A stretch of DNA of 62,120 bases, from positions 66,280 to 128,399 of the forward strand of contig CAIOYH010000068.1 of assembly GCA_903862465.1 (NCBI GenBank), given 5' to 3'. A program made the translations under genes and the position numbers. Positions 8,737 to 54,420 of the stretch are shown here, piece by piece (position 1 is the first letter of the stretch; every line of letters begins with the position of its first letter). This DNA comes from an uncultured bacterium. GTDB lineage: Bacteria; Bacteroidota; Bacteroidia; Bacteroidales; CAIWKO01. The notes under the pieces are model-generated. The model saw only the letters and a list, made by a program, of their open reading frames with translations, searched no databases and was not told where the DNA came from.

Positions 8737-8751
8737 ACAAAAACCTGCATA

Positions 8752-9059
8752 CATATTGCAGGGGTATGACATAGTCATCCCACAAATGTAAAATCATATT
8801 GCAGGGGTATGACATAGTGTTCGCGGAAACCCGCGGACATATTGCAGGGGTATGACATAGTGCTCGCGGAAACCTGCGGACATATTGCAGGGGTATGACA
8901 TAGTGCTCGCGGAAACCCGCGGACATATTGCAGGGGTATGACATAGTGTTCGCGGAAACCCGCGGACATATTGCAGGGGTATGACATAGTGTTCGCGGAA
9001 ACCCGCGGACATATTGCAGGGGTACGACATAGTGTTCGCGGAAACTTGCGAGCATATTT
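8752..9059. repeat. Tandem array A2: 43-bp period, 24-nt arm CATATTGCAGGGGTATGACATAGT plus hairpin GTTCGCGGAAACCCGCGGA
   Basis: CATATT at 8752, 8795, 8838, 8881, 8924, 8967, 9010, 9053. Six near-identical units; the first unit keeps the arm but has a different 19-mer. Confidence 0.97.
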
Positions 9060-15198: not shown

Positions 15199-15315
15199 TT
15201 TTTTTTGTGGAAAACAATTTTAAGGTCCAACCAACAGCAGGTATAGATGATGATGGTATATTCATAAATACATCCGAAATCGTACTTGAAATGGTCTTGC
15301 TGATCGAAACCCTCC

Positions 15316-15527
15316 AATGCAGTTGTATATGCCCATCCCTGCCGAGGGTGATGCACTAATACAGTTGTCGGGGATAGTTCCGCACGAGCGGAATGCTCCA
15401 ATACAGTTGTCGGGGATAGTTCCGCACAAGCGGAATGCTCCAATACAGTTGTCGGGGATAGTTTCGCACGAGCGGAATGCCCCAATACAGTTGTATAGGA
15501 TAGTTTCGCACGAGCGGAATGCTCCAA
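15316..15527. repeat. Tandem array A3: 42-bp period, consensus AATACAGTTGTCGGGGATAGTTCCGCACGAGCGGAATGCTCC
   Basis: Units at 15358, 15400, 15442, 15484, plus a divergent unit at 15316; internal hairpin TTCCGC-ACGA-GCGGAA (stem substituted to TTTCGC in the last two units). Confidence 0.95.
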
Positions 15528-24807: not shown

Positions 24808-25512
24808 ATGGGAAACGTTTCTGGAGTAGTTACTCCAACAAACAAAACAAATTTTGAAGAAGCGGTTGCAGCCGCTGCGGCAGAATTGCCATTTTTGAAA
24901 AGCGCCACTAAGAAGGAACGTATGGAGCTAGTGAAAATGGGTTTAAAAAACACAGGCTTTGTCAATGCTGTTTACACTGGCATTGGTGCTCACTTGGGCA
25001 TATTGCCTTCGGATTTTAATATGGCAGCATTCACCGAAGACATCAAGTTGAAACAAGAGTTGCCATATCTCAAACAACTCTTGGTAGGGTTGGTTGAAAA
25101 AATGGACGATACCGATTTGTTGTTGGGCAACGACTTGATGGTAGCGGCTCTTTATGTTTATTCATTGATGAAGGTAGCAGCAAAAAATAATGCTGAAATC
25201 AAAACATTGGTGGATGAAATTGCAGAAAATTGGATAAACTCAGGCAAAAAGAAAGCAAACACCGTTTTCTCGATTGCTTCTAGCAGCACGATCACCGTTG
25301 CTAATGTTGTTGCTTCTAAGTCATTTTTGAACAACGGAATCACGCTATTAAAATTAAAAGTAGGCGCTGATCTTGTTTCAAAATTTCCTTTAGCAGATCC
25401 TATTACCGTTGACCCGGGGAATTCAGTAAAAATTCCTAAGGGTTGGACGATTATTGAAGTTACGAATCTTAGCGGAACGGCGGCAGGTAGCTTTTCCATT
25501 AAGATTAAGTAA
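24808..25512 (+). CDS. Hypothetical protein H2 (helical N-domain + beta-sandwich-like C-domain)
   Basis: 234-aa ORF with its own promoter and terminator; no signal peptide; amphipathic helices to about aa 150, then beta-rich. Confidence 0.85.
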   Translation: MGNVSGVVTPTNKTNFEEAVAAAAAELPFLKSATKKERMELVKMGLKNTGFVNAVYTGIGAHLGILPSDFNMAAFTEDIKLKQELPYLKQLLVGLVEKMDDTDLLLGNDLMVAALYVYSLMKVAAKNNAEIKTLVDEIAENWINSGKKKANTVFSIASSSTITVANVVASKSFLNNGITLLKLKVGADLVSKFPLADPITVDPGNSVKIPKGWTIIEVTNLSGTAAGSFSIKIK

Positions 25513-25601: not shown

Positions 25602-26107
25602 GGAACTATATAGGTGCATTGCCGGAGCAATATAAGTGCATTGCCGGAGCTATATAGGTGCATCGTTGGAGCTATATAGGTTCATCGCCGGAGCTTTATA
25701 GGTGCCTCGTCGGAGCTATATAGGTTCATCGTCGGAGCTATATAGGTGCATCTTTGGAGCTGTATAGGTGCATTGTCGGAGCTATATAGGTTCATCGTCG
25801 GAGCTATATAGGTGCATCTTTGGAGTTATATAGGTGCATCGTTGGAGCTATATAGGTTAATCGCCGGAGCTTTATAGGTGCCTCGTCGGAGCTATATAGG
25901 TTCATCGTCGGAGCTGTATAGGTGGATCTTTGGAGTTATAAAGGTGCATCTTTGGAGTTATATAGGTGCATCGTCGGTGCTATATAGGTTCATCGTCGGA
26001 GCTACATAGGTGTGTCGTTGGAGCTCTATAGGTGCATCGCCGGAGCTATATAGGTGTGTCGTCGGAGCTACATAGGTCTATCATCGGAGCTATGTAGATG
26101 ATAAATT
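25602..26107. repeat. Tandem array A4: 22 x 22 bp (plus degenerate ends), consensus GGAGCTATATAGGTGCATCGTC
   Basis: Unit starts every 22 bp from 25602 to 26086; core palindrome CTATATAG; no indels; units 3-7 are echoed by units 11-15. Confidence 0.98.
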
Positions 26108-51543: not shown

Positions 51544-51819
51544 ATAAAAATATTAATTCGTTTCATTGTTTTTTTTAGTTGTCCCAAACCTTCAGAATAG
51601 TAACCACCTTTAGGTTAAACGGCAAAAACCACTTCTATTTATTGCTCCATTCTTTCTATAATTCTATATATAAACAAAATTCTTCCACAAAGATACATAT
51701 TTCTAATCACATCCTATCAACTAATTTTACGAATCAAACTAAAAATGAAATCTGTCATTAATTCAGTTTTTAAAAAGTGCTTATTTTTAAAGCGTATTAT
51801 TTTTTTGTACTAAAATGCA

Positions 51820-52380
51820 TTAATCCTTAAATTCAAAAACTAATCGAAAACGTGAATTCCCAACATCATCTTTATATAATTCTTTCTTTTCAATAAAGCT
51901 TGGCGTTAATTTACTACGAAGGTAAAATCCTAAAAAGGCAATTGTAAATGAAACGGCGATAAACAATATCCCAATTAAAAGTACAATTATGAATCTAATG
52001 GTCTCCATACCTTCCGCAGATACTAAAAGTTGTTGAATTCCAGGAAAAAGTCCATATAATCCGGCAATACATGCCCAACCATAATATCGAGCTTTATGTG
52101 TTGCTGCAAAATAAATCATGGGTGCGGTCCAAATAATTCCTACGAAACTTTGCGATAAAACTAATAATAGAATCAAAATAGAAAGTAGAACAAGAAATAG
52201 AATGTGTAAAAATTTATATTTTGTCAAAGCCCGAGCCGATGGCTGAGACTGTATAATGCTTGCAATTTTTAGTCCCCCATGAAATTCTTGATTTAGCTCT
52301 TCGTAAATTGCTTGCTTCGAAACACCAAGTTTGATTTTTTCTTGCGCTAGTTTTTTAATTTGCTTATTATCAATTGTCAT
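51820..52380 (-). CDS. Hypothetical membrane protein (about 4 TM)
   Basis: 186-aa AT-rich ORF; soluble N-terminus followed by hydrophobic segments. Confidence 0.75.
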   Translation of the reverse strand: MTIDNKQIKKLAQEKIKLGVSKQAIYEELNQEFHGGLKIASIIQSQPSARALTKYKFLHILFLVLLSILILLLVLSQSFVGIIWTAPMIYFAATHKARYYGWACIAGLYGLFPGIQQLLVSAEGMETIRFIIVLLIGILFIAVSFTIAFLGFYLRSKLTPSFIEKKELYKDDVGNSRFRLVFEFKD

Positions 52381-52587
52381 TCAATAATTATTTTTTCAAA
52401 GTTAAACAAAAATACGTGGCTAAAGTGTTATTGTCTTTTTCTAGCATTGTCTATAAGTCTTTTATTTATACTATAAGCTAACATAAAGCCATCCAATTTC
52501 ATCCCCTTTTATATCCCAACAAAATTACTTATTTTTCAATCAACTCCTATTTTATTTTACATTAAATATTTTGCATCCCCTATAAGG

Positions 52588-53145
52588 AAAATGTTAGGTA
52601 TTATAACGGCAACCATTATCGTTATAATGACTACCATTATCGTTGTAACGGCAACCATTATCGTTATAACGGCAACCATTATCGTTATAACGACTACCAT
52701 TATCGTTATAACGGCAACCATTATCGTTATAACGACTACCATTACCATTGTAACGACTACCATTGCCATTATAACGACTACCATTATCGTTATAACGACT
52801 ACCATTGCCATTATAACGACTACCATTATCGTTATAACGACTACCATTGCCATTATAACGACTACCATTAACATTATAACGACTACCATTATCGTTATAA
52901 CGACTACCATTATCGTCATAACGACTACCATTATCGTCATAACGACTACCATTATCGTTATAATGACTACCATTGCCATTATAACGACTACCATTGCCAT
53001 TATAACGACTACCATTGCCATTATAACGACTACCATTATCGTTATAACGACTACCATTGCCGTTATAACGACTATCATTAAAATTATAACGCCTAACATC
53101 ATCGTTGTAACGACAATGCTAGGCGTTGTAATTCCTAAATATTTT
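52588..53145. repeat. Tandem array A5: 22 core + 4 degenerate units of 21 bp, consensus ACCATTATCGTTATAACGACT, with inverted termini
   Basis: ACCATT every 21 bp from 52612 to 53053; palindrome CGTTATAACG in the main variant; ends AAAATGTTAGGTATTATAACG (52588) and CGTTGTAATTCCTAAATATTTT (53124) are near-inverted copies. Confidence 0.98.
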
Positions 53146-53175
53146 TTTTAAATTTAAACCGTAGGAAGGTTTTGT

Positions 53176-53946
53176 TTACAGTACAACAAAATAAATCCAG
53201 TCGCCAAAGTTGTAGTTAGAAGAATCTATACCATCGGCAACTTGAAAGATGCGTTTATGCGTTTTGGTGCTTGCCGAACGTGTTGCGGGTTCTTCCACAT
53301 TGGTGACAATAGTGCCGCCACCTGCTTTGCGGGGAATGGTCAGGATACTTGCTTCGCGCATGCCGTAAATGCCTCCCACCTTTAAACCGCATAGCACAAA
53401 TTCGGTTTCCAAGCCAAAAAGAGGTTCCATCCAGATTTCGGGTGGAACACCTTTTTCAGTAGTCAAACCATATTGGCGAATATAGCCTGCACGAAGGTCC
53501 ACTGCTTTTGTGCTAACCCAAACTTCGCCATTGCCCAAAGGATAGGCGTCGAATATTTTATTGGTAGCGCTTTTTGGTGATTTCAGATAATAGCCGGCAA
53601 TCTTAACCATATTAATGCCCAAATTGATATCTCCCGTTGCAATTGCTTTTGCACGGGCAGCAGTTTGAATAAAAAATGCATTGGCATTGTAGCCCGTGCA
53701 CAATAGATTCATCTTTGAATTTACCAATTCTTTGGTGGATGTTGGTGGAATCATCTTGAATTTGTTATGTTCGGTATTCGTGTTGGTGCCCAACAGATGC
53801 ATGTCTGTATCATCGTGGGGAATGTCTGCCAACTCTGTTATACCGGTAGTGTTTTGGCGCGCTGCCTTCGCCACATTTTCTTCAACCGGGTCTTTGGGAT
53901 TTGCCAAAAGAACAACAATTGAATTTGCTGATTTTAATTCTGTCAT
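53176..53946 (-). CDS. Hypothetical protein H3 (helical N-domain + fibronectin type III-like C-domain)
   Basis: 256-aa ORF; helical N-half ending GDINLGINMVKIAGYYLK, then beta-strands (GEVWV...YIRQY...W...FVLCGLKVGGIYGMR) with an Fn3-like pattern; -7 element TACATTTG at 54026-54019. Confidence 0.8.
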   Translation of the reverse strand: MTELKSANSIVVLLANPKDPVEENVAKAARQNTTGITELADIPHDDTDMHLLGTNTNTEHNKFKMIPPTSTKELVNSKMNLLCTGYNANAFFIQTAARAKAIATGDINLGINMVKIAGYYLKSPKSATNKIFDAYPLGNGEVWVSTKAVDLRAGYIRQYGLTTEKGVPPEIWMEPLFGLETEFVLCGLKVGGIYGMREASILTIPRKAGGGTIVTNVEEPATRSASTKTHKRIFQVADGIDSSNYNFGDWIYFVVL

Positions 53947-54420
53947 AATTGTACGTTTTTAAGGTTTAAAAAATTTGATTTAACTTTATTATTGATTTTA
54001 ATATTGATTATAGATATACAAATGTAATACAAAAAAGAATTTTGCGTAGGATTATTCCTATAAGTTATGAACACATTTTCAACCATAATGTGTATTTATA
54101 AAATAAAGTAAATCAATAAAATATTTCATATCACTACCTAAACAACTGACCAGATGCCTTATTTTTATAGTTATATCTGAAAAGAAAAAAGAAAAAAAAC
54201 ATTCCAAAAAAGACATAAAATGATTTTTTGCAGTAATAAATACCAATATAAAATGAGAATGAATGTAGTGAAAAAAAGATGGCTGCGGACCCTATAATTC
54301 ATAAAAAATGTGTACTTTCGTGTCAAATTTAAAAACAAAAGAAAGAGCAAGCGTAGTGGGATAGGAATTTCGCCTTATGTCCTACATCTATCTCAATCAA
54401 AGCATCCTAAAAACCAAGAA

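Follow-up and report, generated by a model that had tools for sequence, protein, structure and literature searches.

A non-coding array of 21-bp units at the centre of a three-part accessory cassette in uncultured lake Bacteroidales

The window analysed here, a stretch of 62,120 nucleotides from contig CAIOYH010000068.1 of an uncultured Bacteroidales bacterium, contains a tandem array of 21-bp units (positions 52601-53114), located close to the 3'-end of H3, a minus-strand gene (53176-53946) that encodes a protein of 256 amino acids. The array is non-coding DNA and forms the central segment of an accessory cassette with three parts. As read from sequence motifs, the cassette comprises an H3-family gene with a promoter-like box, a hairpin or terminator followed by a 21-bp array private to the cassette, and a tail with a promoter-like box that faces outward. 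We consider it probable, by a modest measure, that the array acts as DNA beside this putative outward promoter. The cassette is found only in a few uncultured lake Bacteroidales of one genus and is apparently an undescribed, gene-associated minisatellite cassette.

The link between gene and array was established by counting H3-like loci with at least 120 bp of downstream sequence, from the genome of the window (G000), other metagenome-assembled genomes (MAGs), congeners and metagenome contigs of the Joint Genome Institute (JGI); the loci were scanned for with a narrower alignment rather than with a profile of the divergent family. All 39 testable loci are followed by an array with a 21-bp period. 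In 37 of them the array starts 29-170 bp past the stop codon, and in two distant members (L021 and L029) at 265 and 269 bp, while four H3 loci without an array end at a contig end within 110 bp. The order gene, hairpin or terminator, array is the same in all H3 loci. G000 itself holds 14-15 H3-like loci, and the 14 with enough downstream sequence all have a 21-bp-period array 33-147 bp past the stop codon. The initial annotation of the window had proposed an "H3 cassette", and gene and array do form a unit: every testable homologue has its downstream array, and a homologue without one, which had been named as the observation that would speak against the idea, is absent from the 39. Each H3 cassette lineage has its private array sequence. 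Many loci are gene remnants, consisting of the last 26-113 codons, and these keep their array too; the truncated second copy on contig C81, in which the H3 remnant abuts the stop codon of a glycyl-tRNA synthetase gene, contains 11.3 copies of the same unit as the window copy (contig C68). Of 18 genomes of the genus, 8 contain H3, the copy number ranging from 0 to 14, and none of five genomes from other genera of the family does.

Tandem Repeats Finder (TRF) describes the window array, to which no strand is assigned, as 24.5 copies of a 21-bp period with 87% matches and a score of 706, bearing out the repeat array reported initially. It is the longest of all period-21-class arrays in G000 and has the head-to-tail, non-coding units of 10-100 bp typical of a minisatellite or variable-number tandem repeat (VNTR). 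On the H3 strand the consensus unit is GTCGTTATAACGATAATGGTA. Two main variants exist, ...CCATTATCG and ...CCATTGCCA, which end in ...ATCG and ...GCCA, and a GGCAACC sub-variant is found mostly within the first six units. The unit itself is palindromic at 12 of its 21 positions, and ATCG-type units contain a 12-bp palindrome (TCGTTATAACGA). The 10-bp palindrome CGTTATAACG, previously placed in the main unit, occurs nine times in the 62-kb window (0.04 expected) and every time within the array, but only nine of the ~24 units carry it. This weakens a reading of the array as a series of dimer-binding sites, as the palindrome is interrupted in the majority of units and absent from most arrays of the class; palindromes of at least 10 bp, considered as a class feature, were found in just 15 of 234 units (about 5 expected) and were discarded as such. 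The same unit family is present at C81:3162-3399 (11.3 copies), at C10:101551-101806 (12.2 copies) and in loci L004 and L114, so that in G000 only three arrays (C68, C81 and C10) share it. Copy number differs between these paralogous copies (24.5, 12.2 and 11.3), and the short-read contigs of runs X1-X4 break within the array. The C10 array is at the end of its contig, 62 bp past a 589-amino-acid gene, and no H3-like sequence adjoins it.

Other assignments of the array were considered and discarded. Its units abut without spacers, excluding a clustered regularly interspaced short palindromic repeat (CRISPR) array. An assembly artefact tied to k = 21 is rejected, as the arrays are degenerate with ordered variants, arrays with periods of 20, 22 and 43 exist, and the same arrays are present in independent MAG projects, in JGI contigs and in Logan contigs assembled with k = 31. 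A scan of the window locus against Rfam gave sub-threshold miRNA-like matches only, caused by the palindromic repeat, and that of a paralogous cassette gave none.

Between H3 and the array, at the H3-proximal array end, a terminator-like hairpin is located on the minus strand (53088-53127). Read from 53127 to 53088, it starts 45 nt past the H3 stop codon and has an 18-pair stem with a 4-nt loop, followed by ATAATTTTAA; the stem is formed by the last direct unit, paired with one inverted degenerate unit. The fold of 141 nt around the hairpin has a minimum free energy of -48 kcal/mol (z = -8.2). In the paralogues C5, C166 and C93, a canonical GC hairpin and T7-9 terminator take its position. The earlier statement that no terminator is evident between H3 and the array was thus wrong, and the distance given then, about 30 bp from the H3 stop codon, has to be corrected to 62 bp as determined by TRF, or 43 bp with degenerate units counted. 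With a hairpin, or a canonical terminator in the paralogues, separating gene from array, the co-transcription then envisaged is not upheld either. The stretch directly past the stop codon (53155-53175, minus strand), TAAACAAAACCTTCCTACGGTTT, contains a small stem-loop of an A-tract and a T-tract in the RNA fold. It is common to the window copy, L114, L115 and C81, and the sequence beyond it diverges.

The array ends contain an inverted motif of 8-16 nt, with ATGTTAGG at 52591, its complement CCTAACAT at 53092 and a direct copy, ATGCTAGG, at 53116. These motifs are degenerate inverted copies of the partly palindromic unit. Of the near-inverted 21-22-mer termini initially described, the inverted 8-16-nt motif is real, but the sole 22-mer inverted pair at the array ends is AT-rich and matches at 77%. 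The distal boundary segment TACCTAACATTTTCCTTATAGGGGAT (52575-52600, minus strand) includes one inverted degenerate unit and is the last stretch common to the C81 copy. The end motif is kept in C81, and the similarity between C68 and C81 runs past the motifs, into the 3'-end of H3 and about 25 bp of the tail. Because homology between copies continues beyond them, the end motifs are not MITE (miniature inverted-repeat transposable element) ends, as had been supposed for the 21-22-mers. Genome-wide, 11 of 310 array ends have an inverted partial unit, compared to 1 of 310 control ends, and such units were rejected as a general array feature because the signal is weak.

The two long open reading frames (ORFs) that cover the array, 52591-53151 on the plus strand (186 codons) and 52557-53102 on the minus strand (181 codons), have the coordinates and compositions that were first ascribed to them, and both begin with MLG, as stated then, because of the inverted end motif. 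Both are by-products of a period divisible by three. As 21 = 3 x 7, a frame that is stop-free in one unit is open through the whole array, and four of the six frames of the consensus unit are stop-free (ITTTIIV and YNDYHYR on the plus strand, IMVVVIT and DNGSRYN on the minus strand). Four open frames is the mode among the 234 period-21 arrays of G000, with a mean of 4.2 compared to 3.9 for shuffled units. In 195 arrays the variation shows no codon phase, the share of the most variable phase being 0.505 versus 0.517 after permutation (p = 0.98); for the window array alone, the share is 0.51. In the related L006 array the hydrophobic frame gains a lysine per heptad and the character of the peptide is not kept, while sibling arrays with periods of 20, 22 and 43 bp are unable to code as repeats. 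The DNGSRYN frame (DNGSRYN/GNGSRYN, 53102-53178, minus strand) is the only one in phase with H3, across a TAA and a TAG stop codon, and has no start codon; we judge the shared phase to be a coincidence, unremarkable given three frames. A protein-coding heptad repeat therefore fails on the start codon, on codon-phased variation and on peptide conservation between copies, and the toxic hydrophobic peptide once suggested is not supported either: its ORFs are expected by chance, have no codon phase and lose the peptide in L006. Gene callers will predict long hydrophobic or low-complexity "proteins" on both strands of such arrays, which should be masked.

Comparison of arrays with the synonymous divergence (dS) of their genes suggests a roughly neutral rate of drift for the unit sequence. 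Spacer, hairpin and unit are all shared by the H3 homologue with 93% identity (dS 0.13). Next to a gene fragment with 86% identity the unit differs at one of 21 positions, and in L006, where the gene fragment of 48 amino acids is 92% identical, at three of 21. In the homologue with 70% identity (dS 0.66), about 25 nt past the stop codon are kept, followed by an unrelated unit, GTGATTCGATTACATTACAAT. Within one array, units are 87-97% alike. Drift of the unit combined with likeness within the array is the signature of concerted evolution, in which the unit length is conserved and the sequence is not.

In the H3 protein, residues 1-118 form an N-terminal domain of four helices and residues 132-254 a C-terminal beta-sandwich resembling fibronectin type III (Fn3) domains. 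The AlphaFold2 (AF2) model of the complete protein has a predicted local distance difference test (pLDDT) value of 78.5, and that of the N-terminal domain folded alone one of 92. Foldseek matches the protein to Fn3 domains only, by way of the C-terminal beta-sandwich (E 3e-4), and finds no structural match for the N-terminal domain alone (best E 1.5); the N-terminal domain, as modelled, appears to be novel. Searches of Pfam, PHROGs, NCBIfam and PADLOC gave no match for H3, nor did those of phage, plasmid and IMG/VR collections for H3 and its array, and a profile search of 1.84 billion representative proteins yields a family of only 162 clusters. With hhalign, H3 is grouped with three other array-linked families of G000 (208, 216 and 218 amino acids) at a probability of 97-98%. 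The alignment to the 208-amino-acid family (probability 97.9%, E 3.6e-13) extends over 190 columns, and this family in turn matches those of 216 and 218 amino acids. With a helical N-terminal part, an Fn3-like C-terminal part, a size within the range of about 205-256 amino acids and a private 21-bp array beside it, H3 belongs to an array-linked "four-helix + Fn3" superfamily. The ratio of non-synonymous to synonymous divergence (dN/dS) is 0.30 and 0.32 versus the homologues of 93% and 70% identity, identifying H3 as a functional gene under purifying selection. About 73 nt upstream of its start codon is a promoter-like -7 box, TACATTTG (54019-54026, minus strand), of the TAnnTTTG type, which we take to be the Bacteroidetes-type consensus known from Bacteroides promoters. 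The exact box is present 50-75 nt upstream of the ATG in seven of the eight full-length H3 paralogues of G000, and C74 has a near-match, TACTATTG. The window gene labelled H2 (24808-25512), considered as a relative of H3, is not detectably homologous.

In many H3 cassettes the array is followed, on its distal side, by about 200 bp of conserved, promoter-like tail. In G000 it is found at C212:12579-12842, C52:205-440, C81:2864-3162, C109:25464-25714 and C74:14305-14582, and it is also present in G010, G011 and G031 (L116-L139). The tail has a TTTG-N15-TATCTTTG pair facing away from the array, presumably a Bacteroidetes-type -33/-7 pair by the consensus as generally known, and then two hairpins with compensatory changes; it has no match in Rfam. 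Tails number eight, six and five in the three genomes richest in H3, and one in another family. A 21-bp-period array is located less than 400 bp upstream of 16 of the 19 strong tail matches in four genomes. The genes that come after the tails are unrelated to each other (a DNA methylase, a 363-amino-acid protein, membrane proteins and lipoproteins), and no fixed gene partner was found on the far side of the array. When array flanks were clustered for a leader or tail common to all arrays, mostly other short repeat classes emerged, and only the tail of the H3 cassettes held. In the window, the tail (52454-52574, minus strand) is diverged; it aligns with the tail of other cassettes and contains an outward promoter-like box, TAATTTTG (52527-52520), and contig C84 has a second copy of this tail (C84:56-212). 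One tail match (L119, G031:C24; 91% over 76 nt), which has a short 21-bp array upstream of it at about 325 bp, is in a genome that belongs to a different family and has no H3 match, and may reflect horizontal transfer.

The arrays of H3 cassettes are part of a larger class. The G000 assembly (4.23 Mb in 230 contigs, 39.6% GC) contains 510 TRF arrays with a score of at least 100, of which 236 have a period of 21, 75 of 42 and 25 of 43, with units that are mostly unrelated in sequence. About 375 arrays with periods of 21, 42, 43 or 63 make up about 2-3% of the DNA. Arrays of this class occur at 82 per Mb in the congener G010 and at 50 per Mb in the congener G017, and none was found in 250 kb sampled of the congener G009 or in 400 kb of G018, from another genus. 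The presence of arrays in some species of the genus and not in others points to a lineage-specific, trans-acting cause, which should be findable by comparative genomics. In the G009 sample (L054-L073), four arrays with a 51-bp period were seen, and this sister species may have a period lock of its own. Literature searches revealed no account of period-locked 21-bp arrays from Bacteroidota, and even if they are selfish, several hundred period-locked minisatellites in a bacterial genome of 4 Mb are unusual.

In the explanation that we favour, the array would act as DNA, not as RNA or protein. Unequal recombination or slippage would keep it homogeneous by concerted evolution, preserving the length of the unit while its sequence drifts. 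Because 21 bp correspond to two turns of the helix, every unit is on the same helix face, and with the units in helical phase, a phased multi-site scaffold or an intrinsically bent stretch of DNA beside the outward promoter of the cassette is the preferred form. The most likely ligand of the array would be the protein of the cassette itself, H3, for which we propose the role of a candidate. A more elaborate version, which we regard as doubtful, would make the four-helix and Fn3 protein and its private array a co-inherited specificity pair, of a class so far unrecognised. The protein would polymerise in phase along the array and thereby switch or insulate the outward promoter, reaching the defence or membrane genes behind it; the length of the array would tune this effect heritably and reversibly, and the shared 21-bp period would be structurally required by the filament instead of being an accident of descent. 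If functional, the cassette would represent a new way to couple a gene to a long, fast-evolving array of fixed two-turn period, and could be a new regulatory or defence-island switch.

Several observations weigh against a functional, H3-bound array of this kind. Drift of the unit at a near-neutral rate argues against tight sequence-specific recognition. The fold searches with H3 revealed no recognisable DNA-binding fold, and the window copy is neutral in charge, with an isoelectric point (pI) of 6.9, compared to 8.7-9.5 for the paralogues. Only 93 of 373 arrays (25%) have a member of one of the eight array-linked families within 1 kb, and arrays are located between convergent genes (52) as often as between divergent genes (49), a poor fit to a general role as upstream activator. 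The boxes upstream of H3 and in the tails are motif matches only, and are promoter-like in that sense; the window tail resembles the conserved family only over its first ~35 nt (52575-52600) and is diverged beyond. None of the RNA runs searched for H3 holds the locus; in the four metatranscriptomes in which the organism is present, coverage is limited to SusC/D, at a depth of 2-4.

Several of these observations are what the main rival explanation expects, namely that the arrays are selfish or neutral minisatellites, produced by a slippage or recombination bias of the lineage and hitch-hiking with multi-copy accessory genes. Their common period would then stem from common descent and concerted evolution. 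We give this explanation a minor but appreciable share of our belief, since a unit that drifts at about the synonymous rate, the 75% of arrays without any of the eight array-linked families nearby, the lack of an orientation preference relative to neighbours and an array density characteristic of each genome, with arrays in some congeners and not in others, all fit it, as do the further intergenic repeats of the genome (8-bp arrays and GC-rich elements). Its greatest difficulty is the 39 of 39 H3 genes that keep an array, with none lacking it, where neutrality predicts loss of both halves; nor does it account for arrays that persist beside gene remnants, or for their constant position relative to stop codon and tail. 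It is unlikely that the array is instead transcribed to a repetitive non-coding RNA, processed to serve as an antitoxin-like or sponge partner of H3 in the manner of type III toxin-antitoxin systems. A private array beside a small, fast-evolving gene in a defence-island context would suit such a partner, and array RNA would be highly structured (z = -8.2), but the order gene, terminator, array is the reverse of that in toxIN, no promoter-like box points into the array, the Fn3 and helical fold of H3 is not of the ToxN/AbiQ type, and most arrays of the class are without self-complementarity.

The remaining two explanations are less probable again. That the array codes for protein, be it the V/I/M/A/T peptide made together with H3 or a DNGSRYN extension of H3 by stop-codon read-through, is the least credible of all: the long ORFs on both strands and the DNGSRYN frame in phase with H3 would be its basis, but open frames are expected by chance and carry no codon-phase signal, TAA, TAG and a hairpin intervene between H3 and the in-phase frame, which lacks a start codon, the peptide is not conserved in L006, and the sibling periods of 20, 22 and 43 bp cannot code as repeats. 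Scarcely more plausible, and very improbable in our view, is a MITE-like, non-autonomous element bounded by the inverted 8-22-mers, comparable to BrickBuilt of Porphyromonas gingivalis. That MITE has a 23-nt unit in 1 to 22.8 imperfect copies, combined with a leader and a tail, terminal inverted repeats (TIRs) and promoter elements with promoter activity; its 19 copies share one unit sequence and carry no gene, and it attracts spurious ORF calls from annotation pipelines (Klein et al. 2015, PMC4596501). ATGTTAGG/CCTAACAT inverted at both ends and kept in C81, the three arrays of the genome that belong to one unit family, and a replacement at the window locus in a sister genome would agree with such an element. 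Yet the copies stay homologous past these motifs, in the H3 coding sequence and in the tail, the motifs themselves are inverted, degenerate units such as occur at only 11 of 310 ends, and no target-site duplication is seen at the breakpoints between G000 and G010. The cassette moreover contains a gene, H3; only three arrays have this unit, and those of other cassettes are unrelated in sequence, unlike the copies of a MITE family. BrickBuilt is nevertheless the closest described element, also being an intergenic array of about two helical turns per unit in a Bacteroidales host, with conserved flanks, small inverted ends and promoter elements in the flanks. It differs from the arrays described here in that these have a private unit for each cassette lineage and a protein gene always on one side, their inverted motifs are not element ends, and hundreds of them share the period only.

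Three other known systems resemble the cassette in part. The iterons of R6K, pPS10 and P1 are direct repeats of 17-22 bp with a spacing of about two helical turns; they are private to the replicon and located beside the gene of their binding protein. The helical phase of 21 bp and the adjacency of the gene in the window cassette are iteron-like. Iterons number about 3-9, versus up to 24 units here, Rep proteins have a winged-helix fold whereas H3 has four helices and Fn3, and unlike iterons the arrays are found by dozens to hundreds per chromosome, with 14 H3 loci on one chromosome. Assignment as an iteron-Rep replication origin is rejected, given that no winged-helix fold and no H3 homologue in phage, plasmid or viral collections was found. 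In type III toxin-antitoxin systems (toxIN, cptIN, tenpIN, AbiQ/antiQ) the array comes first, with two to six units of 34-40 nt, and is transcribed and processed. The combination of an array with a single small gene and a terminator between them, the defence-island context and the fast evolution are shared with the cassette. In the cassette, on the other hand, the gene comes first, there are 4-24 units of 21 bp, and the fold of H3 is unrelated to ToxN; with the array not upstream of the gene, and H3 without a family match, PADLOC included, assignment to this type was discarded. Bacterial VNTRs or minisatellites, for example mycobacterial interspersed repetitive units (MIRU-VNTR), are imperfect head-to-tail intergenic repeats, homogenised per locus and differing in copy number, as do the copies here (24.5, 12.2 and 11.3). 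Unlike VNTRs, the arrays of the present genome have a period that is locked across hundreds of loci of unrelated sequence, and those of the cassette have an obligatory link to one gene superfamily and a conserved tail.

The cassette is located in variable, defence-island-like DNA, where it is gained, lost, truncated and swapped among close relatives. In the window it adjoins an EcoRV restriction-modification pair and a SIR2-like gene, and paralogous cassettes adjoin a TIR-TPR protein, a tyrosine integrase and a DNA methylase. The 93%-identical H3 homologue with the same array, from a soil metagenome, has different flanks. In the sister genome G010, with flanks that are 97% identical, window positions 51760-54302, comprising the H3 upstream region, H3, the array, the tail and a 186-amino-acid gene, are replaced by 629 bp with a different 21-bp array, CTGTCTGATAAGAAGTACATG, in about 12 copies (positions 2177-2805 of locus L156, G010:C339:14800-17656). 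This replacement marks the site as a hot spot of cassette turnover. No obvious target duplication is present at the breakpoints (~51762 and ~54303); G010 has a different insert there, and its contig ends 50 bp beyond. The 186-amino-acid gene (51820-52380, minus strand) codes for a predicted membrane protein, has its own TAACTTTG box at 52404-52397 and, being inside the replaced segment, is possibly cargo of the cassette. A paralogue with 72% nucleotide identity (C228:23914-24471) is found in the order array, 323-amino-acid gene, 185-amino-acid gene. Neither the 186-amino-acid protein nor a 339-amino-acid protein has a match in Pfam, PHROGs, NCBIfam or PADLOC.

The window contains four further intergenic arrays: 343-577 (11 copies of 21 bp), 8751-9058 (5.8 copies of 43 bp), 15351-15527 (4.2 copies of 42 bp) and 25602-26097 (22.5 copies of 22 bp). 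The 234-amino-acid gene that precedes the 22-bp array is not detectably related to H3. A 72-nt metatranscriptome contig from run X7 (window 15312-15366) overlaps the first 42-bp unit of the third; it is a weak signal, and the sole RNA signal touching any array. Genome-wide, other intergenic repeats are common beside the 21-bp arrays (for example at C163:70952, C142:1 and C150:10258), in the form of TTGGAGCT/TGGTATTT runs with an 8-bp period, and the array flanks also hold runs of the CTCCGTGT type and a GC-rich structured element (GGCACGCGCGCAAGGGATTGGAACGGAAAGCCC...).

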